A stretch of DNA of 64,000 bases from Bacteroidales bacterium (GCA_025358455.1 JANYJP010000133.1:10852-74851); one strand, 5' to 3'; positions 4,901-34,473 are shown, counted from the stretch's first letter. Made by a program: numbers and translations. Notes: generated by a model not told the origin, from the sequence alone.

Positions 4901-4903
4901 TTT

Positions 4904-13023: not shown

Positions 13024-13440
13024 TTGTATCCGTTTGAAAACGTTTTTTTATATCTTTATCAAAACATTAGTGCTGTGGAAAAGAAATGTCTCGATTGCGG
13101 CGACACCATACGTGGCCGAACCGATAAGAAATTCTGTTCTGATCAGTGCCGGAATAATTTCAACAACAAGATAAACCGTGATTCAAACAATTTTGTAAGA
13201 AATGTTCATGGATTGTTGAGAAAGAACAGAAGAATTCTTGCGGATCTTTATTCTGATGGTAAAGTAAAAGTACATAAAGATGCTCTTTTTGCCCTGGGCT
13301 ATAACTTTAGCTTCTTTACTCATATTATTGAAACATCAAAGGGTCATACCTATCATTATTGCTTTGAATATGGTTACTGCGAAACAGGTGATGATTTCCT
13401 GGAATTAAAGGAAAATAGCCAGTATATAGAATATCAATAA
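13024..13440 (+). CDS. zinc-ribbon-containing hypothetical protein
   Basis: CLDCG...CSDQC four-Cys motif. The true start is probably the internal GTG near 13075; the first ~17 codons look non-coding. Confidence 0.45.
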   Translation: MYPFENVFLYLYQNISAVEKKCLDCGDTIRGRTDKKFCSDQCRNNFNNKINRDSNNFVRNVHGLLRKNRRILADLYSDGKVKVHKDALFALGYNFSFFTHIIETSKGHTYHYCFEYGYCETGDDFLELKENSQYIEYQ

Positions 13441-17670: not shown

Positions 17671-18688
17671 TACCAATTACTTCTACCTCACGTTCAAGTT
17701 CCACCCCGAACTTCTCATTAACTGATTTTTGTATCGCCTGCGAAAGTTCGTAAATCTCTTTTCCGGTAGCTTTTCCATAATTAATGAGGACTAATGCCTG
17801 TTTATCGTGGACTCCGGCATCTCCTATTCTTTTCCCTTTCCAGCCACACTGATCTATAAGCCACCCTGCTGCCAGCTTCGTTAATCCGGACTGATCTTCA
17901 AACAATGGCATTAAAATATACTCTTTTTTAAGAGTGTCGGCCATGGAACGGGATACAACAGGGTTCTTAAAAAAGCTTCCTGCATTACCAATTATTTGGG
18001 GATCTGGTAATTTATTTCTTCTGATATTAATAACTGCCTGTCTGACATTCTTCAAACTTTCACTTCCCAGTCTGCTGACTTCTTCTTTCAAAGATCCATA
18101 GGCTAGATTGAGCAAAGGCTTTTTGATGAGCTTGTAGTAAACCCTTGTAACCAGATAATGACCCTTTTCTTCTTTTTTGAAGATACTGTTACGATAACCA
18201 AATTTACATTCTGAATTTTGGAATATTCGTACCGTTCCATCGCTGATACGGATAGTTTTAACTTTTTCTATGAAATCTTTTACCTCCGTCCCATAAGCGC
18301 CAATATTCTGAACAGGACTGGCGCCGACTGTACCTGGTATCAGCGAGAGGTTTTCTAACCCGGAATAACCATTCTCAACTGTCCATTCGACCAGTTTGTC
18401 CCATATCACTCCGGCCCCGGCTGAAATTATTACGCTTTCTTTGTTCTGTTTCTGCTCTTCAATTTTAATTCCTTCCAGTTCATGATAGAGTATTGTCCCT
18501 TTGAAATCGTCGATAAAAAGAATATTACTTCCACTCCCTAAAATCAGAAGAGGTTTTTTCCAATCAGCAGATCCATTGAAAAGAGAAGAAGCTTCCTTTT
18601 CAGTCTTAATATGAATCAGACATTCAGCCGTGTAATTAAGACCGAAAGTATTATACTTCTTCAACGGGATATTTTTATAAATCTTCAT
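17663..18688 (-). CDS. murB: UDP-N-acetylenolpyruvoylglucosamine reductase
   Basis: FAD-binding GSGSNILF motif and the C-terminal NAGSFFKNP motif. Full length (341 aa). Confidence 0.9.
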   Translation of the reverse strand: MKIYKNIPLKKYNTFGLNYTAECLIHIKTEKEASSLFNGSADWKKPLLILGSGSNILFIDDFKGTILYHELEGIKIEEQKQNKESVIISAGAGVIWDKLVEWTVENGYSGLENLSLIPGTVGASPVQNIGAYGTEVKDFIEKVKTIRISDGTVRIFQNSECKFGYRNSIFKKEEKGHYLVTRVYYKLIKKPLLNLAYGSLKEEVSRLGSESLKNVRQAVINIRRNKLPDPQIIGNAGSFFKNPVVSRSMADTLKKEYILMPLFEDQSGLTKLAAGWLIDQCGWKGKRIGDAGVHDKQALVLINYGKATGKEIYELSQAIQKSVNEKFGVELEREVEVIGTI

Positions 18689-18786
18689 CCTGGTATTTTA
18701 TGTAAAAATAATTTAATTTACCTTTCAATGAAAATCAGATGGAGATGTACCTTAAATCCCGTGAAGAATGGCATGAATGGCTTGAA

Positions 18787-18830
18787 GATATTCCTCGCTG
18801 GCGATCGGAATGACAATGCCCTTGAGGAGC
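18787..18830. repeat. solo copy of dispersed GC-rich repeat unit
   Basis: gatattcctcgctggcgatcggaatgacaatgcccttgaggagc closely matches 35411-35459 (gggagatccttcgctgacgctcaggatgacaatgcccttgatgatcaca). Confidence 0.7.
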
Positions 18831-18949
18831 CTTTAATAATTTTATCAACTCCTGGTTCATAATTATTATTGTTTACCAATACTCAATTGAATAAAATACT
18901 AATTTGCGGATAAATAAATTTATTGAAATAACCTGAAAATATTTTTATC

Positions 18950-20440
18950 ATGACAACTAACCGTCGTAATTTCCTAAAGACAGCAACATTTGCCGGAGCC
19001 GGGGCTATGGCCGGCGGTTTAATTTCCAGCTGTGCACCGAAACAAACTGAATCAAATCTTGCCACTATTCTTGAATCAGTGAAAAGACCTCATACACAGA
19101 AGTTTAATATGTCTGGATATGCTGCTCCTGCAATCCCGGTTGTCAGAATTGGAATTATCGGACTTGGCGACAGGGGAAGTGGAGCCGTTGAAAGGTTATC
19201 TTATATCGAAGGAGTAGAAATTAAAGCTCTGTGTGATAAGAGAGAGGTTGCAGTAAAAGAATCACAGAAATATCTTAATAAAATAGGCAGGCCTGCCGCA
19301 CAGGAATTTTATGGTTCTGAGGATGGATGGAAGAAACTTGTTGAACTTCCTGATCTGGATCTGATCTACACCTGTACTCCATGGGTTTTACACACACCTA
19401 TATCAGTCTATTCGATGGAACATGGAAAACATATTGCCTGTGAAGTTCCTATAGCAAGAACGATTGATGAATCGTGGCAGTTGGTAGAGACCTCAGAAAG
19501 AACAAAAAAGCACTGTATGATGCTTGAGAACTGCTGCTATGATTTCTTTGAACTTCTTACTCTGAATATGGCGCGACAGGGAATGTTTGGTGATATAATT
19601 CATGGGGAGGGTGCATATATTCACAACCTTATGGGCTACAATTTCAAGAAGCCTCTCAACGACCAGCAATCTGACGGCGCATATACCGATATGTGGAGAC
19701 TGAAAGAAAATGCTACCCGTAATGGTAATCTTTATCCTACTCATGGACTGGGTCCGATCTGTCAGGTACAGAATATAAACAGGGGTGATAAGATGGAATA
19801 TCTATCATCAATGTCAACAATTGATTATACTATGGGGCCAAGGGAAAAGGATCTTGTTGCTAACGATTCATTTTATGCTGAATGGAAAGATTCAAAGTTC
19901 CGTGGAAATATGAATACAACGATGGTAAAAACTTCACTTGGAAAGACAATAATGGTACAGCACGATGTTTCGTCCACTCAACCATACTCAAGAATACACC
20001 TGGTAAAAGGCACTCAGGGTATGGCCCGTAAATACCCTGAAGAACTCATTGCATTAGGTGAAAGCTGGGCCACCGGTGATGAAATGAAAACAATTCTTGA
20101 AAAATTCACACCTGAAATTGTTAAAAGAGTAGGGGAGCAGGCTAAAAAAGTTGGCGGCCACGGAGGAATGGACTTTATTATGGACTGGCGATTAATGGAT
20201 TGCCTGCGGAACGGGTTGCCTCTTGATCAGGATGTATACGATGGGGCCCTCTGGAGTTCAATTGCCCCATTGAGTGAATGGTCGGTTGCAAACAGGTCAC
20301 AGTCAATTGATGTTCCGGACTTTACCGGAGGCTCATGGAAAACTAATGTTCCTCATGGTATTAATCTTGAAACAGGAGGAACTACAAAAGTTCTTGAGAT
20401 TCCCGAGGCTAAGGAAGAGATGCAATTAAATGTTAAATAA
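18950..20440 (+). CDS. TAT-exported Gfo/Idh/MocA oxidoreductase, GH109-like
   Basis: Twin-arginine signal (NRRNFLKTATFAGAGA) and a Rossmann motif (IGIIGLGDRGSG). Length and C-terminal region are typical of NAD-dependent glycosidase-like family members. Confidence 0.75.
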   Translation: MTTNRRNFLKTATFAGAGAMAGGLISSCAPKQTESNLATILESVKRPHTQKFNMSGYAAPAIPVVRIGIIGLGDRGSGAVERLSYIEGVEIKALCDKREVAVKESQKYLNKIGRPAAQEFYGSEDGWKKLVELPDLDLIYTCTPWVLHTPISVYSMEHGKHIACEVPIARTIDESWQLVETSERTKKHCMMLENCCYDFFELLTLNMARQGMFGDIIHGEGAYIHNLMGYNFKKPLNDQQSDGAYTDMWRLKENATRNGNLYPTHGLGPICQVQNINRGDKMEYLSSMSTIDYTMGPREKDLVANDSFYAEWKDSKFRGNMNTTMVKTSLGKTIMVQHDVSSTQPYSRIHLVKGTQGMARKYPEELIALGESWATGDEMKTILEKFTPEIVKRVGEQAKKVGGHGGMDFIMDWRLMDCLRNGLPLDQDVYDGALWSSIAPLSEWSVANRSQSIDVPDFTGGSWKTNVPHGINLETGGTTKVLEIPEAKEEMQLNVK

Positions 20441-20640
20441 TCATATTTTCAATCCGATAACCAATACATCATCGACCTGGGAGAAATCACCCTTCCATTT
20501 TATGAGTTCGCTTTCAAGTTTTTCTTTTTGTTCCATTTAATTCATTTTTCCTGATAAGATAAAGATTATTGTGCGCACCTGAATACTGAATGGAATTCCC
20601 CTTCTTATTTATTACGCAAATGGGAATATCCATACCATCC
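20441..20640 (-). pseudogene. relic of a PP2C/SpoIIE-type phosphatase domain gene
   Basis: Minus-strand fragments DGMDIPICVINKKGNSIQYSGAHNNLYLIRKNEL and ...WKGDFSQVDDVLVIGLKI* lie in two different frames only ~10 codons apart. In intact homologues these motifs are >100 aa apart. There is no N-terminal part. Confidence 0.45.
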
Positions 20641-20767
20641 TTTGCTTCATCTGATCAGCTAAATAAAGATGTTTTGAAAAAAATTGTTAGTTTATAAAAT
20701 ATACGAACTAGTAAATATATTAAAAATGATATGCTACATTTAAGTCTTCATATCAAAAACTTCAACT

Positions 20768-22189
20768 TTAAAGAAGGTTTTTTACAGCTTCCTGAATAAG
20801 ATTAATCATCCCTGATGGAGGATTTATTCCTAAATAAAATACCAGCGCTAAAAGAAAATACTGAGTCAATGTTTCTGAAGGATTTGGTTTTTCCTGAGCA
20901 GGAAGCAGATCTTTCGTCTGGTTAAACAAGATATATAAAAAGTTTTTTGCCAGGCTGTACATTGCAATTGAAAGAAAGAACAATACCAGTATAAAAATGA
21001 AGATGTGTTCAGATGTAAACAAAGCTTTAAATATCCAGAATTCAGTTACAAATAAACCAGATGGAGGCATAGCCGTTATTGAAATTAGTATCAATAGAAA
21101 GACCAGAGCCCCGGGCAGATTTCTGTTAAAGTAATTTCCGGTTTCATTGATCATATACGTTTTGAAATTGCGGTGAAACTGGTCAATCTGATAGAAAACG
21201 CTCGCTTTCACAAATGAGTGAAGTATCATATGAAAAATAGCTGCAAAGTAGCCTATGCCTCCTGAAGCGATCCCTATTGCTGCCAGGCCCATGTGTTCAA
21301 TGCTTGAATAGGCGCTCATCCGTTTCAGATGAGTCACTTTTAACAGATAAGCTGCTGAAACAATTATGGAAATCAGGCCGCATAAAAATAATATAGTGTT
21401 CATCCATGGCAGGATAGATGTATGAGCAAAAATTGAATAAGTGCGAAAGATGGAAACGAATCCTACATTCATCAGTGTGGTTGAAATAAATGCGCTTATA
21501 GGAGGAGGAGCCACAGTATGTGCGTCAATTGCGGCGGTGTGCATCGGGAAAAGACCCATCTTTGTACAAAAGCCGACTATCATAAAAAGAAAAATCATTT
21601 TCAGCCATGATGTATTTACACGAAGCAACTGAGCCGGAATTGCATTAAATGAGAAATTGGTTATTTCTGTTTCACCAATGGCAATACTTAACAGGATGAT
21701 ACCGATAAAAGTTATTGTTATTCCAATGGAACATATAAATACATATTTCCATGTTGCTTCAAGAGAAAGTGGAGTCCGTTCATGATATATTAACACTGCG
21801 ACACTCAGTGTAGTCAATTCAATAAAAACCCACATTACCCCAAGGTGTGAAGCCAGATAGGCACAAGTCATTACAATTATCAGCATAATCAACGCTGCAA
21901 AGTAAAAGCTTTGAGAACGGCTGCTGTCTTTCCTGTGCTTAAGATAGATGAAGCTATGATAAAAAGTTGTAAAACTTAATATTGTAAGCACACACAAAAA
22001 TATAACCCCAAGAGCATCGGATTTAAAATATCCGGAACTTATTTCATTCAGATGAAAGTATGCGTAAACGGTAATGGCTGTTTGTACGGCCAAAAACGTG
22101 CTAAGTAGAATAATGCGAACCATACAGTTTCGGTTGAGCATTGAAACTATTCCTATCAGAAAACCTATAATAAGATAATAACCAAACAT
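20768..22189 (-). CDS. HyfF / NuoN-like antiporter-type membrane subunit (Ehr-like, copy 1)
   Basis: Proton_antipo_M-type polytopic protein. About 14 TM helices. Conserved FIELTTLS, TKMGLFPMH and HSFVKA motifs. Confidence 0.8.
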   Translation of the reverse strand: MFGYYLIIGFLIGIVSMLNRNCMVRIILLSTFLAVQTAITVYAYFHLNEISSGYFKSDALGVIFLCVLTILSFTTFYHSFIYLKHRKDSSRSQSFYFAALIMLIIVMTCAYLASHLGVMWVFIELTTLSVAVLIYHERTPLSLEATWKYVFICSIGITITFIGIILLSIAIGETEITNFSFNAIPAQLLRVNTSWLKMIFLFMIVGFCTKMGLFPMHTAAIDAHTVAPPPISAFISTTLMNVGFVSIFRTYSIFAHTSILPWMNTILFLCGLISIIVSAAYLLKVTHLKRMSAYSSIEHMGLAAIGIASGGIGYFAAIFHMILHSFVKASVFYQIDQFHRNFKTYMINETGNYFNRNLPGALVFLLILISITAMPPSGLFVTEFWIFKALFTSEHIFIFILVLFFLSIAMYSLAKNFLYILFNQTKDLLPAQEKPNPSETLTQYFLLALVFYLGINPPSGMINLIQEAVKNLL

Positions 22190-22194
22190 TTATA

Positions 22195-22824
22195 CTAATC
22201 CTTTAAATTGGTTAAGTTATCAACATTCATCTCCTCAAAGGTGTTCCCTATCCGGTTTACAAAAACACCCAGGACAAGCACACTTACAAATATGTCAAGC
22301 GTTATTCCTGAATTCACAAGCATTGGCATTTTGTTACCTGCCGAAAGGGATAAAATGAATACTCCGTTTTCTATTACCAGGTAACCCATTATATGGGTAA
22401 TAATCTTTTTTCGGGTGATGATAATAAACAACCCTGATAACAATGCAGAAATTGCTACTAAAAAGAACATTTTACGGATATGTACACCGGTTATAATATT
22501 TGACAAAATGAAGGACCCGAGCAGGAAGCAGGTTATAATAACAACAGAAAGAAAATCAGGCAGATAAGGTTGTGCTTCCCTGACGATATTATTCTTTTTA
22601 ATAACATAATTCAGAAATAACGGAATAGCAAGAGTTTTAAAAACAATTGTCTCAAATAAAATAAAAATCAGGTTGATAGTATTGATCTGGATAAGTTCAA
22701 TGAATGATACTCCAAAAAGAATGATTCCCTGCACTGCAAGTATGTTAATATAGGTAGAAAGTCTGTTTGCAATTCCCATGTAAATAAGGCTGATGGCAAA
22801 TGTTATAAGCAGAATATTGACCAT
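22195..22824 (-). CDS. HyfE-like small membrane subunit (copy 1)
   Basis: 209-aa polytopic protein, paralogous to 30883-31515. It occupies the HyfE position between the HyfC-like and HyfF-like genes. Confidence 0.7.
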   Translation of the reverse strand: MVNILLITFAISLIYMGIANRLSTYINILAVQGIILFGVSFIELIQINTINLIFILFETIVFKTLAIPLFLNYVIKKNNIVREAQPYLPDFLSVVIITCFLLGSFILSNIITGVHIRKMFFLVAISALLSGLFIIITRKKIITHIMGYLVIENGVFILSLSAGNKMPMLVNSGITLDIFVSVLVLGVFVNRIGNTFEEMNVDNLTNLKD

Positions 22825-22838
22825 TTATGATTCTCTTG

Positions 22839-23753
22839 TTAAAAATATTTACCCAATATCAGGAGCACAGCAAAAAATATTAATAGCGAAATAGAACTAA
22901 TAGTGAAAATGAACTGAGGATTATGATTCATCCTGAACCTGGCAATGAAGGATTCTAAAGTTCCAACGACAACAGCAAAAAGAGCCTGTACTCCAATAAA
23001 AATTGGAATGGAATAGTACCATTCTCTTCCCGGTGTAAGAAAAAAGTTAGCTATTAAAGCCCCGTACATGGCAAATTTCAGATTGGTGGCATGAAGGATG
23101 AGTCCAAGATCAAATCCACTGTTGTCAAGGACCATAACCTCATGAATCATAGTCAGCTCAAGATGTGTCTTCGGGTCATCAACAGGCATCCGGCTGTTTT
23201 CGATCATAGCAATTAAAACCAGGACGAATGAAGCCAAGATCCCTATAGCGTAGGAAATATACGAACCAAACTGGATGCCACTAAAAATATCTGCGAAGGA
23301 ACTATATCCGGTAAGAAGAGCCAGTGAACCCATAAGAATGAAGAATGCGGGTTCGGCAAGAAAAGAATACAATGCTTCACGACTGGCTCCCATACCTTCA
23401 AAACTGCTACCGGTATCTAAAGCGCCGATAATACTGAAAAATTTGCCTACAGCCAGTATATAGGCAAAAAACACAAAATCACCATCAAACGAGAATATTC
23501 CTTTCTGATTTCCAAAAGGAATTAGCATGATAGCAATCAATACTGAAGCAAAATAAATATCAGGGGCAATTTTAAAAATAAAACTTGTAGTCTGGCTGTA
23601 CACATTTTCTTTCCGTAATAATCGCCAGATATCTTTCATGGGCTGAAAGATGCCGGGACCCTTTCTGCCTGAGAAAATGCTTTTTGTCCGGATGACTATT
23701 CCTAGGAAGAAGAAGCTTGTTATAATGATAAGAATAAAAACTAACCCGGCCAT
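22839..23753 (-). CDS. HyfC / HycD / NuoH-like membrane subunit (copy 1)
   Basis: NADHdh-family pattern including ENSRMPVDDPKTHLELTMIHEVMVLDNSG. 304 aa. Confidence 0.8.
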   Translation of the reverse strand: MAGLVFILIIITSFFFLGIVIRTKSIFSGRKGPGIFQPMKDIWRLLRKENVYSQTTSFIFKIAPDIYFASVLIAIMLIPFGNQKGIFSFDGDFVFFAYILAVGKFFSIIGALDTGSSFEGMGASREALYSFLAEPAFFILMGSLALLTGYSSFADIFSGIQFGSYISYAIGILASFVLVLIAMIENSRMPVDDPKTHLELTMIHEVMVLDNSGFDLGLILHATNLKFAMYGALIANFFLTPGREWYYSIPIFIGVQALFAVVVGTLESFIARFRMNHNPQFIFTISSISLLIFFAVLLILGKYF

Positions 23754-23754
23754 A

Positions 23755-25797
23755 TTACATCTGTTTTATAAGGTTAAACAAATAAGCCGCTATACCACTT
23801 AAAAGCGAAATAATCATGATGATAAATATGAAAATCACCCCGTATAATATATAATAACGCATATTCCCGTTTTGAATAAACCGGACACGCGCCATTATTT
23901 TATTCATGATTTTCAATGGAAAATCAACAAAGGCAGCTTCAATCTTATCATAAGGATGTGTCTCGGAATGAATCGGACTTGAAAATACTCCTTTTATATC
24001 TCCCTCCTTTTTATTCATTAACAGAAACGGTCTAATCAGCTTTCTGTATGAGCGTACATATGAGCTGGCGGTGTATTGCATTTTACTGTTAGGTGCAACA
24101 TAACCGCAAGCCCAGGTTGGTGTTATAACCTCTTTTTTATTACGAAGAACAAATCGTTTTATTGTCGCTATCAATGCAATTGCTAGTATAAATGCCCAGG
24201 TTACCAGGCTTATCGACCGAAGATTATTGCCGATCATTACTGCCGGGAACCCATCCTTTAAACCGGATGTAAATAAACTTACCGGGTTGGTCAGGAGCTT
24301 TAAGATAAGCTGAGGAAACAGTCCGATAAAAATAATAAATATGACTATAAGATAACCAGGAAATAGTTTTGATTTTTCTGCTTCCTTAATATCATTATCG
24401 AACTGGCTTCTTGCCTCTCCAAGAAATATAATGCCAAAAGCCTTTGTAAAACACAGAAGCGCCAGACCTCCTATCAGAGCAAGTCCGGCAATACATAAAA
24501 TACAAAATGTAGTAATTGATAAAGATCCCGAATGGACACCTTCAAAAAGGCCAAGGTAGATCAAAAACTCTGAAACAAATCCATTGAATGGCGGCAGGCC
24601 GCAGATAGCCATAGCGGAAACAAGGAACAGGAAAGCTGTATGTGGCATTTTTTTGATCAAACCTCCCATACTGTCGATATTTAATGTATGAATTGCCTGA
24701 TAAACTGTTCCGGCCCCGTAAAACAATAATGATTTAAACAACGAATGGTTAAGCACATGCAATAATGCCCCTGCAAAACCGGCAAAAGCCAGGTACGGGT
24801 TTTTTATTCCAATGCCAATCGCCCCGATTCCGATTCCGATTCCGATAATGCCAATATTTTCAATACTATGATATGCAAGCAATTTCTTTAGATTATGCTG
24901 AATAATAGCCAATACCACACCATACACCCCGGATATTATTGAAATAGTTAAAATAATATATCCGATAGTCAGGTAATTCTGGTTCACTAATAGAAGCATT
25001 CTTAAAATACCGAAAATACCCAGCTTGATCATGACCCCCGACATTACTCCTGAAACATGAGCTGGTGCCACAGGATGGGCATATGGAAGCCATGTATGGA
25101 AAGGTACAAAACCAGCTTTAATTGCAAAACCGATAAAAAAACACAGGTACAGGGTAAGGCTAATCAAAGGTGATACTGACGCGCTGTATGCGGTAATTGT
25201 GTTAAAGTCATATGACCCCGTATGCGAACTGATCCATATAAGCCCAATGGTAAGTAATAAAATGCATATATGCGATTGTATCAGGAAGTTGACCGCTGCT
25301 CTTAAAGTTTCCGGTTTTTTGTATTCAAAAATAACCATTATAAACGTCGACAGAGCCATAATTTCCCAGTCATAAAGAAATGCAAGACTGTTCTGTATGG
25401 CAAAAATTCCAATCATACTTGCATGATTGATAATAAAACATACAAAATGCAATGGGATCATTCCGGACTTATTTTCATATTGCTTCATGTAACGCCTGCC
25501 ATAAAGTATGCCGGTAAGAACAGTGAAGTTCATCATTAAAATAAACCAGCCTGAAAGAGCATCTATCCTTATTGGAATTTCGCCAAAAACAGGACCCCCA
25601 TGTATAATTTCAATGTAAGAGTGTCCTAAAACGGCATTGACAGCAACCCATGAACTAATTCCTGCATTAATTATTACGGCGCCAAGAGCAATGTTACCTG
25701 ACCATGCCTCTTTGGAAAAGCTGATAAACAGTATAAATAATGCAGTTACTAAAAGTATGCAGATACTCAAACTCATTTGTGAATGGTAAAATTTCAA
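23755..25797 (-). CDS. HyfB / NuoL-like antiporter-type membrane subunit (copy 1)
   Basis: 680 aa. Motifs WEIMALS, IKAGFVPFHTWLPYAHP and NHSLFKSLLF. The true start may be the internal MSLSICILL. Confidence 0.85.
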   Translation of the reverse strand: MKFYHSQMSLSICILLVTALFILFISFSKEAWSGNIALGAVIINAGISSWVAVNAVLGHSYIEIIHGGPVFGEIPIRIDALSGWFILMMNFTVLTGILYGRRYMKQYENKSGMIPLHFVCFIINHASMIGIFAIQNSLAFLYDWEIMALSTFIMVIFEYKKPETLRAAVNFLIQSHICILLLTIGLIWISSHTGSYDFNTITAYSASVSPLISLTLYLCFFIGFAIKAGFVPFHTWLPYAHPVAPAHVSGVMSGVMIKLGIFGILRMLLLVNQNYLTIGYIILTISIISGVYGVVLAIIQHNLKKLLAYHSIENIGIIGIGIGIGAIGIGIKNPYLAFAGFAGALLHVLNHSLFKSLLFYGAGTVYQAIHTLNIDSMGGLIKKMPHTAFLFLVSAMAICGLPPFNGFVSEFLIYLGLFEGVHSGSLSITTFCILCIAGLALIGGLALLCFTKAFGIIFLGEARSQFDNDIKEAEKSKLFPGYLIVIFIIFIGLFPQLILKLLTNPVSLFTSGLKDGFPAVMIGNNLRSISLVTWAFILAIALIATIKRFVLRNKKEVITPTWACGYVAPNSKMQYTASSYVRSYRKLIRPFLLMNKKEGDIKGVFSSPIHSETHPYDKIEAAFVDFPLKIMNKIMARVRFIQNGNMRYYILYGVIFIFIIMIISLLSGIAAYLFNLIKQM

Positions 25798-25921
25798 TAA
25801 GATAAAAGTCGCAAATGCAACTTTTGTAAACTTTCTTAAAAGTATGTAAAGTGGTTGAATAACACAAATTATTTATTAAATTCGCACCCTGTTTAAAACA
25901 GCCGGTTGAACTAATCAAAGC
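25798..25921. promoter_or_regulatory. 124-bp divergent control region shared by the two Hyf/Ehr-like operons
   Basis: This is the only non-coding DNA between the two divergently oriented first genes. It is AT-rich. Specific promoter elements were not confidently identified. Confidence 0.4.
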
Positions 25922-27946
25922 ATGATGTTTTATGAGGGTAAAGAATTAATTGGTCTTTTATTCAGATTATATGTAATAGTCTTGTTTTCAGGGATAATTG
26001 TGCTCCCGTTTATTCCTCTAAGATTTAAGTCAATCATTAGTATCATTTCTGTTTTCCTAATCGCATTAATTACCAGTTTTATTGCCTTAAATGGATTTTC
26101 AGGCGACGGAATTGAATTTTTGGTCAACGGTGGATCATTTTTCGGTGAAATTCCTTTAAGAATTGATGCCCTGGCGGCATGGTTTATTCTGATAATCAAT
26201 TTTACATCTGTTACAGGGGTATTATATGGTGCGGGATATCTTAAATCATCAACTGTTCACCCTTCTGTAATTAGTTTCCATTGGATCTTATATATTGTAT
26301 TTCAATCATCGATGCTGATAGTGTGCATGGTGCAGCACAGTATAGCATTCATACTGGCGTGGGAGGTTATGTCGTTGTCGTCATTATTCCTTGTGTTATT
26401 TGATTATACGAATCCTAAAGTGCTTAAAGCAGGAATAAACTATCTTGTTCAGATGCATCTGAGTGTAGTTCTCTTAACAGTTGCATTTATCTGGGTTTAT
26501 TTCAAAACCGGCACTTTCGACTTTAAAGGTATAAGTGTATTTTTTGGGTCGAACCCGAACATCTGGCTATTCTTGTTATTCTTCACCGGATTCGGTTTGA
26601 AGGCTGGATTTATTGGATTACATACCTGGTTGCCGCAAGCCCATCCTGCTGCTCCATCACACATTTCAGGAGTTATGTCAGGGGTTATTGTTAAAATGGG
26701 GATTTTTGGTATTTTCAGGATAATAGCCTGTCTGAAAGCCGATTATATTATCCTTGGAGAGATTATTATAACGATATCATTATTAACCGGCCTGTTCGGG
26801 ATAATGAATGCTGCTGTTCACAGGGATTTCAAAAAAATGCTGGCCTATTGTACGATAGAAAATATAGGTATAATAGGTATTGGTATCGGCCTTGGACTGA
26901 TAGGTATGGGCACAGGACAGGGTTTATTGAGTTTTCTTGGATTTGGTGGTGCATTACTGCATGTGCTTAACCATTCGTTATTTAAGTCACTTCTCTTCTA
27001 TTCCGCAGGCTCAGTTTACCGGCAGACTCATACCCGCGATATGGATAAACTAGGTGGATTAATAAAGAAGATGCCAAAGAGCGCTTTATTATTTCTTACC
27101 GGTGCCATAGCTATCGGAGGTATCCCTCCACTCAACGGATTTATTTCTGAGTTTTTGATCTATTGCGGGATTCTTAATGGCATAAATTCTGCTGGTATTT
27201 CGCAGATAACTTTAATGGTAATATTATTTGCAGGTCTCAGTATGATAGGTGGCATATCGTTACTTACTTTTACAAAGGCTTTCAGTACTGTCTTTTTGGG
27301 AACACCTCGTCAGGAATTGAAACACGAACCGGTTGAAGTTTCATTGTTAATGCTTTTACCGCAATATTTTATAGTTGCTGCAATGATTATTATCGCTTTT
27401 TTCCCCGGCTATTTTATTGGGATTATTGGAACTGTGCTTAATAATAATACATTCAATAGTGTCAATTTCAATATTCCTGATTTGCAAAGATATATTGGAA
27501 TACTTAAGAATATTAGTCTGGCTTCATTTCTGTTGATTGCAGTTATTGGTTTTGTATTTCTACTCAGATGGTTTTTTACCAGAGGGAGTGAAGTAAAATA
27601 TTCTTCTACATGGGGTTGTGCATATCCTGCAGCCGGAGACCGGATGCAATATACAGGCAAGTCCTTTTCAAAATCATTCGGGAAACTCTTTAATTTTTTA
27701 ATGATTGAGAAGAAGGGGTATGATGAAATCAGACAAGATGAAACTTTTCCTGAGTCACGAAAGTACCGGTCGTTTTATATCGATATTTTTGAAGCTAAAA
27801 TAATAGGTCCGGTGATGCATCAGATTACACGATTTATCAATCTTTTCCAGTTTATTCAGAATGGGAAGATCCAGGCATATGTTATCTATGGTATCGTATT
27901 TATTCTTGCTATCTTTATTGGAACAATTTTAAACCTTTGGCATTGA
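25922..27946 (+). CDS. HyfB / NuoL-like antiporter-type membrane subunit (plus-strand copy B1, most divergent)
   Basis: 674 aa. Motifs WEVMSLS, LKAGFIGLHTWLPQAHP and NHSLFKSLLF. Confidence 0.85.
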   Translation: MMFYEGKELIGLLFRLYVIVLFSGIIVLPFIPLRFKSIISIISVFLIALITSFIALNGFSGDGIEFLVNGGSFFGEIPLRIDALAAWFILIINFTSVTGVLYGAGYLKSSTVHPSVISFHWILYIVFQSSMLIVCMVQHSIAFILAWEVMSLSSLFLVLFDYTNPKVLKAGINYLVQMHLSVVLLTVAFIWVYFKTGTFDFKGISVFFGSNPNIWLFLLFFTGFGLKAGFIGLHTWLPQAHPAAPSHISGVMSGVIVKMGIFGIFRIIACLKADYIILGEIIITISLLTGLFGIMNAAVHRDFKKMLAYCTIENIGIIGIGIGLGLIGMGTGQGLLSFLGFGGALLHVLNHSLFKSLLFYSAGSVYRQTHTRDMDKLGGLIKKMPKSALLFLTGAIAIGGIPPLNGFISEFLIYCGILNGINSAGISQITLMVILFAGLSMIGGISLLTFTKAFSTVFLGTPRQELKHEPVEVSLLMLLPQYFIVAAMIIIAFFPGYFIGIIGTVLNNNTFNSVNFNIPDLQRYIGILKNISLASFLLIAVIGFVFLLRWFFTRGSEVKYSSTWGCAYPAAGDRMQYTGKSFSKSFGKLFNFLMIEKKGYDEIRQDETFPESRKYRSFYIDIFEAKIIGPVMHQITRFINLFQFIQNGKIQAYVIYGIVFILAIFIGTILNLWH

Positions 27947-29964
27947 TTAATATTCTAATTATCATATTATTATCATCCATCATCTCTGTGCTGTTTGTCA
28001 GTACAAAAAGTAAAGGTATTATTACAGTTGCAACAGTAATTGTCATTGCGTCCCTCAGCAGCTTTTTTTCAATAAAAGCGCTCTTTGGTGAAAGTTATCA
28101 GGTTGTTTTATCAGGAACAATAATGTTTGGAAAAGTGCCGGTAATTATTGATTCTTTATCCGCATGGTTTATACTTACAATTAATTTCACAATTGTGACC
28201 GGCGCTATGTATGGTTTTAATTATATGAAAAAGTACAGGGAAAAGAAGAATGAGATCACACTACACTGCATCGCTTTCCTGCTGGTTTATTTCGCATTAT
28301 TGGGAATAAGTTCTGTTCAAAACGGATTTATCTTTCTTTTACTATGGGAATTAATGGCGCTTTCAGCTTTTACTCTTGTAATATTTGAACACGAAAAACC
28401 TGAAACAATTAAAGCCGGGCTTAATTATCTTATTCAATCACATTTCAGTATCGTTTTCATAATGCTGGGGTTTATATACGTTGCTTTCAAAACAGGAAGT
28501 TACGGGTTTGATGCAATTGTTAGTTTTTCGGGTAATCAATCAGTGCTGGCAGGAACAGTGCTTTTTCTCTGCTTCTTTATAGGTTTTGCTATAAAATCAG
28601 GTTTCGTTCCCTTCCATACCTGGCTTCCTTATGCTCACCCGGCTGCACCTACACATGTTTCCGGAATAATGTCCGGTGTTCTTATTAAGATTGGTATTTA
28701 TGGTATCCTCAGGATGTTACTGTTAATCAGAACCGACTACACTACAATTGGTTATATAATATTGTTTATATCATTATTTACAGGGATTTATGGCGTAATG
28801 CTGGCTACTATCCAACACAACCTTAAGAAGTTACTTGCATACCATAGTGTCGAAAACATTGGTATAATAGGAATAGGAATAGGATTAGGTTGCATAGGAT
28901 TAGGGTCATCAAATAAATGGATGGCAATATTAGGATTCTCCGGTGCATTACTTCATACATTGAATCATTCATTATTTAAATCTCTTCTGTTTTACAGTGC
29001 CGGTAATATTTATCAGGCGGCTCATACACTAAATGTGGAGCGCTTAGGTGGATTAATTAAAAAGATGCCACAAACTGCTGTTCTGTTCCTGGTTGCTTCG
29101 ATTGCCATTTGTGGACTGCCACCTTTGAACGGTTTTATCTCGGAATTTCTTATTTATGGGGGGTTGTACAATTGGCTTTACAGCGCAAATCTGATTTCAC
29201 TCATAGCAATAGTGTTTTCAATAGGTGGATTAGTATTGATAGGAGGTCTGGCACTACTCTGTTTTACAAAAGCATTCAGTATCGTGTTCCTTGGAAATTC
29301 ACGAGAGAAACATGATGATGAAATTTACGAAACAGGTTTCTGGCAGTTATTCCCGATGTATCTTACGGTTTCGTTAATGATATTAATTGGCCTGTTCCCG
29401 TCTTTTTTCATAAATGCATTAAAACGACCTGTTGCCCTTTATTTGCAGAGTGCAGTTTTTGACCAGAATATTATTAAGGTTGGTGTAGTTGATTCGCTTC
29501 AGACTATTAGTTGGTTATTCTTCGGACTTATATTATTTGTATTAGTTATTGTTGGACTAAGAAAACTTATTACCAGGAAAAAAAATATTGAAATTGGATC
29601 AACCTGGGGTTGTGCTTATAACAATCCAACGAGTAAACTACAATATACAGCCAGTTCTTACGTCCGCAGTTACTCAAAACTTGCTAAACCTCTTCTGGAT
29701 ATAGAGAAAAATGAGGTCGGGATTGACGAGGTTTTTCCGGCAGAGAAACATTATGAAACAGATCCTTATGATAAAATTGAGCGCATTTTTATTGACAAAC
29801 CATTAAAACTGATAAACAGGATTACCGATCCGTTTCTATTTCTTCAGAATGGACGTTTACAGACATACATTCTGTATGGAATTATCTTTATTGCCTCTGT
29901 AATTGGCCTTCCTCTTATTATTGAAAAGATAATATCAATTTTTCATTTTTTAAATAATTTGTAA
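27937..29964 (+). CDS. HyfB / NuoL-like antiporter-type membrane subunit (plus-strand copy B2)
   Basis: 675 aa. The TTG start overlaps the upstream stop by 10 nt. Motifs WELMALS, IKSGFVPFHTWLPYAHP and NHSLFKSLLF. This is the closest paralogue of 23755-25797. Confidence 0.85.
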   Translation: MALINILIIILLSSIISVLFVSTKSKGIITVATVIVIASLSSFFSIKALFGESYQVVLSGTIMFGKVPVIIDSLSAWFILTINFTIVTGAMYGFNYMKKYREKKNEITLHCIAFLLVYFALLGISSVQNGFIFLLLWELMALSAFTLVIFEHEKPETIKAGLNYLIQSHFSIVFIMLGFIYVAFKTGSYGFDAIVSFSGNQSVLAGTVLFLCFFIGFAIKSGFVPFHTWLPYAHPAAPTHVSGIMSGVLIKIGIYGILRMLLLIRTDYTTIGYIILFISLFTGIYGVMLATIQHNLKKLLAYHSVENIGIIGIGIGLGCIGLGSSNKWMAILGFSGALLHTLNHSLFKSLLFYSAGNIYQAAHTLNVERLGGLIKKMPQTAVLFLVASIAICGLPPLNGFISEFLIYGGLYNWLYSANLISLIAIVFSIGGLVLIGGLALLCFTKAFSIVFLGNSREKHDDEIYETGFWQLFPMYLTVSLMILIGLFPSFFINALKRPVALYLQSAVFDQNIIKVGVVDSLQTISWLFFGLILFVLVIVGLRKLITRKKNIEIGSTWGCAYNNPTSKLQYTASSYVRSYSKLAKPLLDIEKNEVGIDEVFPAEKHYETDPYDKIERIFIDKPLKLINRITDPFLFLQNGRLQTYILYGIIFIASVIGLPLIIEKIISIFHFLNNL

Positions 29965-29965
29965 A

Positions 29966-30871
29966 ATGTTAAGTATAATACTAATACTATTCACCAGCAT
30001 TTTCTTTACAGGGATAATCATCAGAACCAAAAGCATCGTTTCAGGTAGAAAAGGCCCCGTTATTTTGCAGCCAGTTAAAGATGTGGTCAGGTTATTTAAA
30101 AAAGGTGCTATTTACAGTGAAACAACAAGTATTATTTTCAGAATAGCCCCGGTAATCTACTTTTCCACAGTATTTATGGCTTGCCTTGTTGTTCCGTTTG
30201 GATCATATAAGGGCATTGTAAGTTTCGACGGAGATTTTATTTTCTTCGCATACATTCTTGCTTTAGGTAAATTCTTTAGCATTATTTCAGCTATGGATAC
30301 GGGAAGTAGTTTTGAAGGGATGGGGGCAAGCCGTGAAGCATTATTCTCAATGTTTGCCGAACCTGCCTTCTTCATTCTTATAGGTTCTTTTGCTCTGTTT
30401 ACCGGCAATACATCATTCCATAATATCTTTTCAACATTACATCTTGGCTCGTCAATAACGTATATGTTGGGAGGACTGGCCGCTTTTGTATTGCTGATGA
30501 TTTCAATGATCGAAAATAGCAGAATGCCTGTGGATGACCCCAAAACCCATCTTGAACTAACTATGATCCACGAGGTTATGATACTTGATAACAGTGGTTT
30601 TGATCTTGGTTTAATACTTTCAACCGGATACCTTAAATTTGCAATGTATGGAGCAATTATTGCTGATTTCTTTATAGGCGGATTATTCCTGATTTGGGCT
30701 ATTCCTTTATTTTTAATGATACAGGTACTATATGCAATAATGATAGGGTTAATTGAATCCTTTATGGCTCGCTTCAGAATGAACCATAACCCTCAGTTTA
30801 TATTGACCCTTTCGTCGGTCAGCTTTCTAATCTTCCTGGGCGTGCTACTTGTTTTGGACAAATTTGTTTAA
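29966..30871 (+). CDS. HyfC / HycD / NuoH-like membrane subunit (copy 2)
   Basis: 301 aa. About 70% identical to 22839-23753 over a hand-counted 146-residue stretch. It carries the same ENSRMPVDDPKTHLELTMIHEVM motif. Confidence 0.8.
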   Translation: MLSIILILFTSIFFTGIIIRTKSIVSGRKGPVILQPVKDVVRLFKKGAIYSETTSIIFRIAPVIYFSTVFMACLVVPFGSYKGIVSFDGDFIFFAYILALGKFFSIISAMDTGSSFEGMGASREALFSMFAEPAFFILIGSFALFTGNTSFHNIFSTLHLGSSITYMLGGLAAFVLLMISMIENSRMPVDDPKTHLELTMIHEVMILDNSGFDLGLILSTGYLKFAMYGAIIADFFIGGLFLIWAIPLFLMIQVLYAIMIGLIESFMARFRMNHNPQFILTLSSVSFLIFLGVLLVLDKFV

Positions 30872-30882
30872 TATTTTATATA

Positions 30883-31515
30883 ATGACAAACGTCTTATTA
30901 ATTATATTCATTATCAGCCTTTTATATGTTGCAATTGCTAACAGGATCATTACCTATGTGAGAGTTCTTGCGTTGCAGGGATGTCTGCTCTTTGGCGTTA
31001 CATTCCTTCAGTTGCGTGAAATACAGACATGGAACCTGGTCCTTATCCTGCTCGAGACTATTGTTTTTAAAGCCGTGGCTGTTCCGGTATTTTTGGGTTA
31101 TCTGATTAAGAGAAACAAGATTACCAGGGAAACTGAACCTTATTTGCCGCACTTCATCTCACTGATAATAATTACAATGATTGTAGTTATAACGGTCCTG
31201 CTCGCGAATTCAATACAGGATACCCATCTTGATAAAATATTCTTCATAGTATCTCTCTCAACTCTATTTACCGGGTTGTACTTCATAGCCACAAGGAAAA
31301 AGATTATTACACATGTTATGGGATATCTGATGATTGAGAATGGAGTTTTTGTTCTCTCCCTGGCAGTCGGTAACGAAATGCCAAACCTTGTCAACCTGGG
31401 TATAATGCTTGATGTATTTGCCAGTGTATTGATACTGGGGATTTTCCTCAACAAAATAGGTGATGTTTTTAAAGATGTTGATGTTGACAAGCTTACCAAT
31501 TTGAAAGATTATTAA
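30883..31515 (+). CDS. HyfE-like small membrane subunit (copy 2)
   Basis: 210 aa, a paralogue of 22195-22824. The shared C-terminus is ...KKIITH.MGYL.IENGVF.LSL...LTNLKD. Confidence 0.7.
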   Translation: MTNVLLIIFIISLLYVAIANRIITYVRVLALQGCLLFGVTFLQLREIQTWNLVLILLETIVFKAVAVPVFLGYLIKRNKITRETEPYLPHFISLIIITMIVVITVLLANSIQDTHLDKIFFIVSLSTLFTGLYFIATRKKIITHVMGYLMIENGVFVLSLAVGNEMPNLVNLGIMLDVFASVLILGIFLNKIGDVFKDVDVDKLTNLKDY

Positions 31516-31526
31516 TCACTGAAATA

Positions 31527-32954
31527 ATGACTTTGATATATCTGATATGTGCTTTTGTAATTGCCGGATTACTTTTGATAAACAGGAATACTGTTTTAAA
31601 TTATATAATGGTTATTCTCTTTGGTATTATTCAAACCGGATTTACTATCTACGCAGGGTTTCATTATAAAAATACAGTTTTAGAATATTTTTCTTTCGAT
31701 TCTTTAGGATTGCTTCTTCTGGTTGCTTTGAGCATTGTGACTATTCCAGCCCTTATTCACAGCTATTTGTATATTAAAAGGCACAATGAGACACCCCAGT
31801 CCAGGGCTATATATTTTTCAGCAATTGTCATCCTTTTAACGTCAATCAGCGCTGCTTATCTTGCCAACCATATTGCTGTTATATGGATTTTTACAGAGAT
31901 GACAACATTATCGGCTTCTATGCTGATTTATCATCACAGGAATAAACTTGCATTGGAGGGAACCTGGAAGTATGTGTTTATATGTGCAATAAGTATCACT
32001 TTTGTTTTTATCGGGATTCTTTTTCTAAGCCTTTCGCTTCAGCATGCCGGATCAACTGATCTCTCTTTTTCCAACCTGATGGCTCATAAAGATCAGCTGA
32101 ACACATTCTGGCTTAAACTGGCATTTCTTTTTATTTTTACAGGTTTTACAGCAAAGCTCGGATTGGTCCCGATGTATACAGCTGGTATAGATGCAAAGGA
32201 TAAAGCGCCAGCCCCTGCAGGTGCTTTACTTGCAAGCGTACTGATGAATCTTGGGTTTGTCGGAATATTCAGGTTCTATGCAGTTATTGCTCATACATCT
32301 ATTTTTCACTGGGCTAATCTGATCATCTTTTTTGCGGCTTTTATTTCAATATTTGTTGCAACTGTATACATGACTAAGGTTATGAATATTAAAAGAATGT
32401 TAGCCTATTCCGGAATTGAACATATGGGTATTGTAATGCTTGGAATAGCAGCAGGGGGAATTGGCTATTATGCAGCTATTCTGCATATTATATTGCACAC
32501 TTTTGTGAAATCGGGTATATTTTTTCAATACAATCAGTTATACAGAACGTTTCAGAGCAAAAGTATTCAGCACGTGGGCAACTATTTTAAGTATAATCCC
32601 ACAGGAGCAATTGTGTTGCTTATAGGGTTTATAAGTGCAACTGCTATGCCCCCTTCCGGATTGTTTGTAAGTGAGTTCCTGATCTTCAAATCACTCTTTG
32701 ATGGCAACTATATAGTGTTACTGGTTCTTGTATTACTTTTATTGACGATTGTTATATGGGCCTTTGGAAAGAATATCTTGAAAATTCTGTTCCTTCCCGT
32801 GCCTGATATAGATGAGAGTAAAATACCAAAAATAAGCCCTTGGGAATCATTAACTCAGTATGTATTGATGTTTACAGCAATCTGGCTGGGACTAAATCCA
32901 CCGGCAATATTTGTTCAGTTAATTCAGGATGCAGTTAAAATCTTACCTAATTAA
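31527..32954 (+). CDS. HyfF / NuoN-like antiporter-type membrane subunit (copy 2)
   Basis: 475 aa. Motifs FTEMTTLS, AKLGLVPMY and HTFVKS. Confidence 0.8.
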   Translation: MTLIYLICAFVIAGLLLINRNTVLNYIMVILFGIIQTGFTIYAGFHYKNTVLEYFSFDSLGLLLLVALSIVTIPALIHSYLYIKRHNETPQSRAIYFSAIVILLTSISAAYLANHIAVIWIFTEMTTLSASMLIYHHRNKLALEGTWKYVFICAISITFVFIGILFLSLSLQHAGSTDLSFSNLMAHKDQLNTFWLKLAFLFIFTGFTAKLGLVPMYTAGIDAKDKAPAPAGALLASVLMNLGFVGIFRFYAVIAHTSIFHWANLIIFFAAFISIFVATVYMTKVMNIKRMLAYSGIEHMGIVMLGIAAGGIGYYAAILHIILHTFVKSGIFFQYNQLYRTFQSKSIQHVGNYFKYNPTGAIVLLIGFISATAMPPSGLFVSEFLIFKSLFDGNYIVLLVLVLLLLTIVIWAFGKNILKILFLPVPDIDESKIPKISPWESLTQYVLMFTAIWLGLNPPAIFVQLIQDAVKILPN

Positions 32955-32955
32955 A

Positions 32956-34455
32956 ATGAGCTTCATAACAATAAAAAACCATCAACCAGTTCCGGTTAAC
33001 ACAATACCGGAACTAGAGTATGATATATTTTATAATCTAAATATATCCTTGCTCGCGGAACATCCTGAAAGACATTGCGTTTTGTATTTTGGTTACAGGG
33101 TGCTTGATGTAATACGACTAATGTGTTGTGTTGCAGATGATATTCAGCATAATATCCTGATTTCTTCTTCGATTGTCAGAAGCGATTCCAAACTCAATTC
33201 TTTTTCTGCAAAAAACCTTTCTTTCGAAAGATTTGAACGCGAAATTCATGAAAACTTCGGTATTGATTATATCGATCATCCATGGCTAAAACCGGTTCGT
33301 TATTCTGAATATAGGATTGATAAATCCAAGACGATTCATAACTATCCGTTTTTCAGCATTGAAAGTGAAGAACTTCATGAGGTGGGAGTAGGGCCGGTGC
33401 ATGCAGGTATAATAGAACCCGGACATTTCAGGTTTATATGTAATGGCGAACAGATATTGCATCTTGAAATTCAGTTAGGTTATCAACACAGGGGCTTGGA
33501 ACAATTACTCCTTGATAAAACAAAACTAATTCAGCGAACTACCTTGGCTGAATCCATAGCAGGCGATAGTGTTATTGGCCATACAACAGCATTTGCATAT
33601 TTATTAGAAAGCCTCAGCGGAACAGTACCTGAGAGTGAAGTCATCTATTCACGAACACTTGCACAGGAACTGGAACGAATTGCGGTTCATACCGGCGACT
33701 TAAGCGGAATTTGCACCGATGTTGCCTATCAACTGGGTAGTTCTGTATTCGGAAGACTCAGAACCCCAATAATCAATTTTTTCCAGGAATGGTGCGGGAA
33801 CCGTCTGGCTAAAGGATTAATCCGTACCGGTTACAACCCATTTCCATTTAGCAAAGCTCTGTCTGAAAGGTTAACTACAATATTAGATGCATTTGAACCA
33901 GATTTTGTTGAAATGAATGGCGAGCTTTCAAAACTACCAAGCTCTTTATCGAGATTTGAGAGAACCGGCACCTTGAAATATGATCAGTTATTGTCAATCG
34001 GCACAGTTGGAATGTCAGCCAGGATGAATGCCCTGAACAGGGATATAAGAATGTCGCACCCTTATGGCAGATATCCTGAGTTAAATCACGAACCAATTCT
34101 AAAGCATCATGGTGATGTATATTCAAAAGTACAGATCAGAAAACAGGAGGTATTGCAGTCAATAGAATATATAAGGAAATGGTTGAATCAGATTCCTGAA
34201 TCAACAAAGACTCAACCTCAACCAGTTACTCTGAAGCCTGATTTATTTGCAATCTCTCTGACAGAAGGGTGGAGGGGTGAAATATGCCATGCTGCCGTGA
34301 CAAACAATAAAGGTGAACTGGTGATTTATAAGATTAAGGATCCTTCGTTCCACAACTGGCTTGCGTTGGCATTATCGGTAAGAAACAATGAAATTTCTGA
34401 TTTCCCGGTAATTAATAAAAGTTTTGATTTGTCGTATTGCGGACATGATCTTTAA
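32956..34455 (+). CDS. NuoC-NuoD / HycE-like 'large subunit' homologue lacking [NiFe] ligands (EhrL-like)
   Basis: The ATG at 32956 lies 1 nt after the upstream stop. There is a NuoC-like FERFEREIHENFGI...HPW segment and then GPVHAGIIEPGHFRF...YQHRGLE, as in HycE. The metal-ligand motifs are mutated: SIAGDSVIGH instead of RVCGICGFAH, and DLSYCGHDL* instead of DPCYSCTDR. Confidence 0.8.
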   Translation: MSFITIKNHQPVPVNTIPELEYDIFYNLNISLLAEHPERHCVLYFGYRVLDVIRLMCCVADDIQHNILISSSIVRSDSKLNSFSAKNLSFERFEREIHENFGIDYIDHPWLKPVRYSEYRIDKSKTIHNYPFFSIESEELHEVGVGPVHAGIIEPGHFRFICNGEQILHLEIQLGYQHRGLEQLLLDKTKLIQRTTLAESIAGDSVIGHTTAFAYLLESLSGTVPESEVIYSRTLAQELERIAVHTGDLSGICTDVAYQLGSSVFGRLRTPIINFFQEWCGNRLAKGLIRTGYNPFPFSKALSERLTTILDAFEPDFVEMNGELSKLPSSLSRFERTGTLKYDQLLSIGTVGMSARMNALNRDIRMSHPYGRYPELNHEPILKHHGDVYSKVQIRKQEVLQSIEYIRKWLNQIPESTKTQPQPVTLKPDLFAISLTEGWRGEICHAAVTNNKGELVIYKIKDPSFHNWLALALSVRNNEISDFPVINKSFDLSYCGHDL

Positions 34456-34473
34456 ACCTAAAAGACAAAAACG

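Follow-up and report, generated by a model that had tools for sequence, protein, structure and literature searches.

We examined a stretch of 64 kb (64,000 nucleotides) from the genome of a Bacteroidales bacterium (GCA_025358455.1, JANYJP010000133.1:10852-74851), hereafter the window, to whose positions all coordinates refer. Between positions 20768 and 25797, its minus strand carries four open reading frames (ORFs) identified by Pfam and NCBIfam as HyfB-, HyfC (NuoH)-, HyfE- and HyfF-like, which lie back to back with a plus-strand operon of the same general kind. We denote by m the minus-strand set and the operon type to which it belongs, by p the plus-strand operon and its type, by L the NuoC/NuoD-like subunit and by S the NuoB-like subunit. 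The subject of this text is the minus-strand set, which has no L and S genes of its own, together with its origin and the partner with which its products may assemble.

The first gene of the set, mB (23755-25776, minus strand), encodes a large antiporter-type HyfB-like subunit of 673 amino acids (NCBIfam hydrogenase-4 subunit B, 3.4e-145). Its ORF reaches back to a TTG at 25797, but the ATG at 25776, which is kept in an alignment of nine loci, is most likely the true start. On the same strand follow mC (22839-23753), a NuoH/HyfC/HycD-like subunit of 304 amino acids that matches Pfam NADHdh (PF00146) at 3.7e-31 and aligns end to end with HycD (7z0s_D, 2.8e-20), and mE (22195-22824), a HyfE-like membrane subunit of 209 amino acids with a NuoK-type C-terminal half (NCBIfam hydrogenase-4 membrane subunit, 8.8e-19; the Pfam Oxidored_q2 match stays under its curated cut-off). 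The final gene, mF (20768-22189, minus strand), encodes a HyfF/NuoN-like antiporter-type subunit of 473 amino acids (Pfam Proton_antipo_M, 4.8e-46; NCBIfam hydrogenase-4 subunit F, 3.6e-61). Its orthologues, at 68-90% identity, make up about 45 protein clusters, all of them far nearer to mF than pF is. The best explanation for mB-mC-mE-mF is that they form the full membrane arm of a second complex, of the type called Ehr-like below, with two antiporter-like, one NuoH-like and one NuoK-like subunit.

The plus-strand operon comprises five membrane genes, recognized with Pfam and NCBIfam, namely pB1 (25922-27946), pB2 (27937-29964), pC (29966-30871), pE (30883-31515) and pF (31527-32954). They are followed on the same strand by pL (32956-34455), a NuoC/NuoD-like large subunit with a match to Pfam Complex1_49kDa, and by pS (34474-35226), a NuoB-like small subunit (Pfam Oxidored_q6, 2e-19). 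For pL, translation probably begins with the ATG at 32956, giving 499 amino acids as in its homologues. Searches by tblastn with p- and m-type L and S queries retrieved a single L/S pair from the 64 kb (32929-35226), pL being the sole L gene in the window, and no NuoD- or NuoB-like gene after mF. Likewise, no L/S remnant was found by tblastn 3' of mF in the window or in the clade-A loci, such remnants being limited to a lineage with tandem layout described below. The lack of an L/S partner, on which the preliminary description of this locus had insisted, is thereby borne out.

Both cytoplasmic subunits depart from hydrogenases at their cofactor sites. In an alignment with HycE (7z0s_E), pL displays AGDS in place of CGIC and DLSYCG in place of the C-terminal DPCYSC, and this loss of the NiFe-ligand motifs is common to 52/52 L proteins of the family, the m-type L included. 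Compared with MbhJ (6cfw_J) and HycG (7z0s_G), pS retains a single proximal-cluster cysteine out of four (within SCELE), with GTDAISGG and PGNPAHP standing at the remaining sites, and the same holds family-wide (50 S sequences). Four N-terminal cysteines of S (C48, C65, C68 and C71, arranged as CP...CxxCxxC) are invariant in 50/50 family members, and L has invariant C50 and C171 (52/52) as well as C262 (51/52). The four S cysteines may hold the sole Fe-S cluster of the complex, and the invariant S and L cysteines taken together are candidates for its sole cofactor sites.

The closest known category is that of the Ehr complexes (Ehr for energy-converting hydrogenase-related), reportedly treated by Marreiros et al. 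in 2013. Ehr complexes are described as relatives of group 4 hydrogenases that lack the CxxC motifs and have no known function (PMC10284858, PMC6349859). Since its L is devoid of NiFe ligands and its S of the proximal-cluster cysteines, the present family fits the published definition. Indeed, the p-type operon (25922-35226) and the complete m-type operons presented below (loci L010/L101, L013, L019, L041 and L102) all encode NuoD-, NuoB-, NuoH- and Mrp/Nuo antiporter-like subunits, with a large subunit free of CxxC NiFe ligands. The minus set alone has neither a NuoD-like nor a NuoB-like gene, and is thus a truncated derivative of an Ehr operon rather than a full member. Two traits differ from Ehr complexes as described: in S, three of the four proximal-cluster cysteines are missing as well while an N-terminal four-cysteine motif is present, and, as the trait examined here, a second membrane arm exists with no L/S genes.

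Other assignments do not apply. The family does not belong to the group 4 [NiFe]-hydrogenases, as neither RxCGxCxxxH nor DPCxxCxxH/R occurs in L and S has no four-cysteine proximal cluster. It is not respiratory complex I either, for no NuoE, NuoF, NuoG or NuoI gene was found in or beside either set, and the N2 cysteines are absent from the NuoB-like subunit; NCBIfam scores for NuoH, NuoD and NuoB are far under their cut-offs. These operons have the gene order B-C-E-F-G(L)-I(S) in common with Escherichia coli hydrogenase-4/FHL-2 (HyfABCDEFGHI) and FHL-1 (7z0s), and the best NCBIfam and PDB matches are HyfB, HyfF and HyfE and HycD, HycE and HycG. However, the operon here has no NiFe site, no proximal cluster, no HyfA/HyfH ferredoxin-like subunits, no HyfD and no adjacent formate dehydrogenase, and all its NCBIfam scores fall far below the equivalog cut-offs. 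In the literature, we found no description of orphan HyfBCEF-like sets, of a second Ehr arm without L/S, or of the present Bacteroidota family.

The two arms of the window are clearly paralogous and clearly old. Their genes stand in the same order and at similar spacing, with intergenic gaps of 1, 14 and 5 nt in the minus set versus 1, 11 and 11 nt in B2-C-E-F, as the preliminary description had it. Global protein identity is 67.4% (203/301) between mC and pC, in line with the 70% or so that had been counted by hand over 146 residues (103 identical), and 58.4% between mE and pE, so that the HyfE-like pair is the less similar one, as had been judged by eye; it drops to 47.1% between mF and pF. 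In the same way, mB is nearer to pB2 (52.8%) than to pB1 (43.2%), as had been stated. At the DNA level the arms are 65-69% identical and their longest common exact word measures 22 nt, which points to an old divergence, as had been argued, and rules out a recent repeat or gene conversion between the arms.

What this old divergence separates is, nevertheless, not a gene set and its copy next door. We scanned genome and metagenome collections with mF and mapped the genes in about 100 loci (numbered L001 onwards), all from uncultured metagenome-assembled genomes or metagenome contigs. In these maps, a separate six-gene operon recurs, the m-type operon B-C-E-F-L-S, whose first four genes are the orthologues of mB-mC-mE-mF; in distance trees computed for each subunit, the four window proteins cluster with the membrane genes of the complete six-gene operons. 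The m-type L and S form a clade of their own, 58-61% (L) and 63-68% (S) identical to pL and pS. Complete m-type operons were observed in L019/L020, where they stand alone, and in L013/L036, L041, L010/L026/L101 and L102, all in related Bacteroidota.

Relatives present several combinations: p-type alone, m-type alone, both complete, and p-type with an orphan set. In L001, whose pL is 77% identical to that of the window, the same flanking genes enclose a p-type operon without any minus set (MurB-GH109-B1-B2-C-E-F-L-S), so the minus set is an addition relative to that genome. In L101, the complete m-type operon precedes a p-type operon including pL, and in L102 the order is the opposite, with p-type F-L-S ahead of a complete m-type operon. 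As both operons are complete and adjacent in these two loci, the ancestral state was likely a pair of complete neighbouring operons, one p-type and one m-type. Gene mapping and trees together indicate that the minus set is the remainder of a distinct m-type operon from which L and S were deleted, and not a duplicate of its neighbour. Of the earlier proposal of an 'old inverted duplication or acquisition', the age is therefore retained whereas duplication of the neighbour is not. The inversion is real as far as the divergent orientation is concerned, yet that orientation is only one of three layouts in which orphan sets occur.

Several observations made along the way concern the wider family. 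In L019/L020, a gene for a 23S rRNA intervening-sequence protein (PF05635) is inserted between L and S of the complete m-type operon (12990-13340), and a reverse-transcriptase gene lies just 3' of it. One metagenome contig, L063 (1-13709), carries in tandem two complete B-C-E-F-L-S operons of very different subtypes, so that operon pairs recur outside the m/p pair. Many seven-gene operons, among them those of L004, L014 and L006, have an F that resembles mF (52-66%) more than it does pF (48-50%), whereas the p-type is the nearer one for their B1 and B2 and, mostly, for their C and E; in the F tree, the pF clade is a long-branch outlier.

We considered a set as orphan when no L/S followed mF despite enough downstream sequence. 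Three layouts were found among such sets: divergent from the p-type genes as in the window (L018, L003, L009, L023, L049, L030 and L031), in tandem directly after pS (L012, L028, L032 and L034), and a hybrid arrangement in L024. In a neighbour-joining tree of concatenated B, C, E and F (1659 columns, 200 bootstrap replicates), the window's group, in which every member is orphan or hybrid, and the tandem group each receive 100% support, and L030/L031 are sister to the complete L010/L101, again with 100% support. Because these three supported orphan groups are interleaved among complete operons, the m-type L/S would have been lost at least three separate times, unless it was regained.

In the tandem lineage, the loss is visible in progress, L and S being eroded in place. 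Directly after mF, L residues 132-177 and 238-301 remain in L011, and L residues 246-308 in L033, whose contig stops there; in L032, L residues ~207-243 are fused to S residues 80-251. Only S residues 222-249 persist in L028 and S residues 226-249 in L034, L035 and L039, and nothing of L/S is left in L012 and L038. Time and again, the deletions of this lineage end at the terminus of mF. One apparent case of a truncated mF in a close relative, L015 (JAYVYS010000460.1, labelled as an Isosphaeraceae metagenome-assembled genome), was disregarded as a chimeric contig: over its first 864 nt, it matches window positions 21702-22565 at 96% identity, after which the GC content jumps from 0.39 to 0.59, the remainder having 0.57-0.60.

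A set that has lost its own L/S could be a non-functional leftover on its way out, and deletions in related loci (pB1 in L009, the p-arm in L024, and possibly a pC frameshift in L003) could be cited in that sense. The four membrane ORFs are, however, intact in more than 20 loci at 76-100% identity. Between the window and L009, both orphan, the ratio of non-synonymous to synonymous substitution rates (dN/dS) is 0.040-0.086 for the m genes (mF 0.086, mE 0.045, mC 0.040), compared with 0.019-0.092 for the p genes. Further orphan lineages, compared over unsaturated pairs (dS 0.01-0.6), gave 0.036-0.103 for the m genes of L032/L034, 0.068-0.152 for L030/L031 and 0-0.12 for L023/L049. These values, about 0.02-0.15 overall, lie in the range of the p-type genes and are no higher than those of m genes within complete operons (0.05-0.21 in L010/L101). 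Furthermore, where a column is at least 97% conserved in non-orphan family members, the window proteins retain the family residue in 248/248 cases (B 102/102, C 60/60, E 27/27, F 59/59), and the remaining orphan sequences deviate only sporadically. The substitution patterns thus indicate that the orphan m genes are kept under purifying selection in three independent lineages. Decay of the set in relatives, which the preliminary description had named among the observations that would overturn its interpretation, does not take place; with the tandem-lineage deletions repeatedly stopping at the end of mF, a decaying relic is contradicted by these data, and we consider it extremely improbable.

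Individual loci nonetheless show changes of their own. L030 and L031 differ by a dS of 0.12-0.23 in the m genes versus 0.64-0.78 in the adjacent p genes, a discordance that suggests recombination or horizontal replacement of one arm. In L009, a relative at 88% identity, the p-type operon has no pB1 and its pB2 is directly divergent from mB (4240-6417), the seven-gene operon being now one of six genes; mC of the same locus bears the rare changes S116N and F118L in the conserved DTGSSFEG loop. In L003, on a 1.9-Mb contig, the p-type NuoH-like gene is split into two ORFs by a 1-nt insertion near codon 52 (1340-2290); either this is an error of sequencing, or the p-arm has been inactivated while the m-arm was kept in the same genome.

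In the scenario that we propose, an ancestral m-type operon lay beside a seven-gene p-type operon B1-B2-C-E-F-L-S, and in the lineage of the window the m-type L and S were deleted and the four membrane genes retained under purifying selection; the data bear out these steps. The orphan m-arm would then assemble, by inference, with the L/S pair of the adjacent p-type operon. In this way, a single peripheral module would serve two alternative complexes: the p-form, whose antiporter-like subunits would be three in number (B1, B2 and F), and the m-form, a canonical six-subunit complex that would have two such subunits (B and F), the latter architecture being the commonest in the family. Each arm would be transcribed from its own promoter within the divergent intergenic region. 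That the orphan arm depends on its neighbour's L/S, and that two complexes share one L/S module in this way, is a reading to which we give slightly better than even credence.

The closest precedent is provided by cyanobacteria, in which NDH-1L, NDH-1MS and NDH-1MS' consist of a common NDH-1M core with alternative NdhD/NdhF paralogues (PMC6358722, PMC4786724). There, one peripheral and core set is combined with alternative antiporter-like subunits, as is proposed here. The exchange in cyanobacteria affects only the distal NdhD/NdhF, the NuoH homologue NdhA being shared, whereas here a whole arm including the NuoH- and NuoK-like subunits would be exchanged. The resemblance is functional, with no specific homology beyond common complex I ancestry.

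Three lines of evidence favour borrowing of the L/S pair over the other option offered by the preliminary description, a free-standing transporter. First, L directly follows F in 52/52 operons outside the m-clade for which at least 1 kb of downstream sequence is available, which makes L/S seem indispensable to such membrane arms; within the m-clade, 19 sets lack L after F. Second, the loss was seen only beside a second operon, since all orphan sets with enough upstream sequence (13/13) abut p-type genes. L and/or S are visible at the locus in eight of these 13 (the window, L018, L009, L012, L024, L028, L032 and L034), and the other five loci end inside p-type membrane genes. Third, the five p-type membrane genes pB1 to pF have been lost from L024, one metagenome contig of 15 kb, which keeps an intact pL-pS divergent from an intact m-arm. 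With respect to the window, its junction joins about the first 41 nt of pB1 to a 50-nt piece from the 3' part of pF, and the resulting 33-codon mini-ORF ends as TAA-C-ATG at the start of the intact pL-pS. As only pL and pS remain beside the m-arm in L024, any working complex there would have to combine an m-type arm with p-type L/S.

The comparison of mC with pC is consistent with such a combination. C is the most similar paralogue pair of the two arms, and the columns fixed for different residues in m- and p-type proteins number only four in C, compared with 20 in B and 41 in F. Furthermore, mC and pC are 85% identical in four putative cytoplasmic loops and 60% elsewhere. With so few fixed differences and such loop identity, docking of pL/pS onto mC is plausible, these loops being predicted to face the peripheral subunits.

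The free-standing alternative would make the orphan arm an Mrp-like cation/proton antiporter with no NuoB/NuoD-like partner, in which the NuoH-like subunit is only part of the ion path. Mrp (Mnh/Pha) systems are encoded by seven genes, mrpA-G, including MrpB, MrpE, MrpF and MrpG, and have no NuoH-like subunit. The orphan set resembles them as a membrane-only assembly of NuoL/M/N-like and NuoK-like proteins without cytoplasmic subunits of its own; it differs in having four genes, one of them NuoH-like, and none matching MrpB, MrpE, MrpF or MrpG, and the MrpA/D models score far below their cut-offs on it. The survival of four intact and constrained genes without their own L/S would suit a free-standing transporter, as would a family-wide L/S without NiFe site and proximal cluster, through which redox coupling is possibly weak or absent. 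The same may be said of the orphan proteins' lack of any adaptation to a p-type partner: no convergence toward p-type residues was found, the m-type state being kept at nearly all diagnostic columns, a result that we regard as neutral. Such a transporter would nevertheless leave unexplained the presence of L after F elsewhere in the family, the absence of any orphan away from p-type genes, the intact pL and pS of L024, whose own membrane arm is gone, and the fact that the putative L/S-facing loops are the best-conserved parts of mC. On balance, we judge it unlikely. If it were true, the set would stand, as an ion transporter, between the Mrp antiporters and the complex-I-like enzymes, and the repeated loss of L/S would mark a shift from coupled complex to uncoupled transporter.

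The set could also be orphan by position only, if another part of the genome encoded a further L/S pair, of m-type or any other type, to serve it. Two complete operons do occur together in some genomes, and our count of a single pair covers 64 kb of the source genome, so that a further pair could lie beyond. However, L/S in the tandem lineage were eroded in place rather than moved, and in all remaining sampled operons L/S lie in cis, directly after F. In addition, among the top m-type L matches, the 14 clusters at 69% identity or more include none on the orphan-bearing contigs of 1.9 Mb, 787 kb, 453 kb and 75.7 kb, a weak point that holds for those contigs only. A pair encoded at a distance therefore appears quite unlikely.

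Finally, both arms might join one enlarged complex around the single L/S pair, for instance with a dimeric or branched membrane domain, and the constant adjacency of the two sets, in a common divergent or tandem regulatory context, would agree with this. Yet each arm is the sole arm somewhere, the p-type in L001 and the m-type, with pL/pS, in L024. Moreover, each arm has its own NuoH-like subunit, whereas in solved relatives (complex I, MBH and FHL; e.g. 7z0s and 6cfw) one such subunit docks one NuoB/NuoD-like pair. We hold a joint complex to be very unlikely.

Several points weigh against alternative complexes on a shared L/S module. The uncultured origin of all compared sequences and the possible second pair beyond the 64 kb have been mentioned, as has the lack of convergence, which we count here in spite of its neutrality. 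Adjacency to p-type genes could have been inherited from the two-operon ancestor without being functionally required. The L024 deletion is seen on one contig and may be recent or non-viable, and the reciprocal case, in which pL/pS are lost and the m-type pair is kept, was not seen among the mapped loci. The topology of the mC loops is deduced from hydropathy and from homology to NuoH and HycD, and both assembly and expression of the m-arm are predictions from sequence.

The region between the two arms offers elements that could control them separately. It measures 145 bp (25777-25921, between mB and pB1). A box within it, TTAAATTCGCA (25876-25886), is conserved and includes a sequence close to TAnnTTTG, the Bacteroidetes -7 element, in a position that suits the plus operon, 37 nt upstream of pB1. 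The box is found in all nine aligned divergent-layout loci, in the perfect form TAATTTTG in L024, L030 and L031, and TAnnTTTG, exact or nearly so, can be read in its complement. Just upstream of the mB start, the nine-locus alignment also displays a conserved hairpin or palindrome, AAAAGTTGCATTTGCGACTTTT (25804-25825), in which two pairs have changed in a compensatory manner in L023 and L049. This hairpin might act on the orphan arm specifically, whether as a structure in the 5' untranslated region, as an attenuator or as an operator. If box and hairpin are taken as putative promoter and regulatory elements, a separate promoter is probable for each arm, and a control element of its own is possible for the m-arm. 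A sigma-70 scan of the region, with a model unsuited to Bacteroidota, returned 21 sites against 23.7 expected, that is, no excess.

On the other side of the set, the convergent gene that had been reported as unrelated encodes an oxidoreductase of the GH109 family (18950-20440). The 327-bp spacer between it and mF (20441-20767) had been described as a phosphatase gene relic, a view that we could not confirm: it has no relevant Pfam match, a tblastn comparison with the SpoIIE protein of L004 was not significant, and no nucleotide match was found in any fetched locus. It holds short minus-strand ORFs with YSGAHNNLYLIRKNE and SQVDDVLVIGLKI, whose likeness to C-terminal motifs of PP2C/SpoIIE is by eye and has no statistical support. 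In L004, a SpoIIE/HATPase_c_2/STAS partner-switching set adjoins the operon. Farther along the window (42759-52918), an amino-acid permease gene precedes an intact kdpABC-kdpDE, while in L018, a relative at 98% identity, KdpC comes right after PhoU_div, neither KdpA nor KdpB is present, and the KdpD call is only 248 amino acids long (18551-21500).

To our knowledge, all members of the complex I superfamily whose structure is known seat the NuoB/NuoD-like pair on a NuoH-like socket subunit, and the three are inherited together. In the present family, the arm that bears this socket stayed under selection while the L/S pair appears to have disappeared on at least three separate occasions; in L024 it was the opposite arm that went, and what is left there joins the membrane arm of one operon to the L/S of the other in a natural hybrid. 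If the arms are indeed interchangeable on one module, the exchange would go beyond the swapping of NdhD/NdhF in cyanobacteria and would give a direct view of recombination between membrane and peripheral modules, an assumption central to models of how complex I evolved. These results also single out a large and widespread Bacteroidota family of Ehr-like complexes with neither NiFe site nor proximal cluster, in which paired arms with three versus two antiporter-like subunits would provide an experimental handle on ion specificity or stoichiometry.

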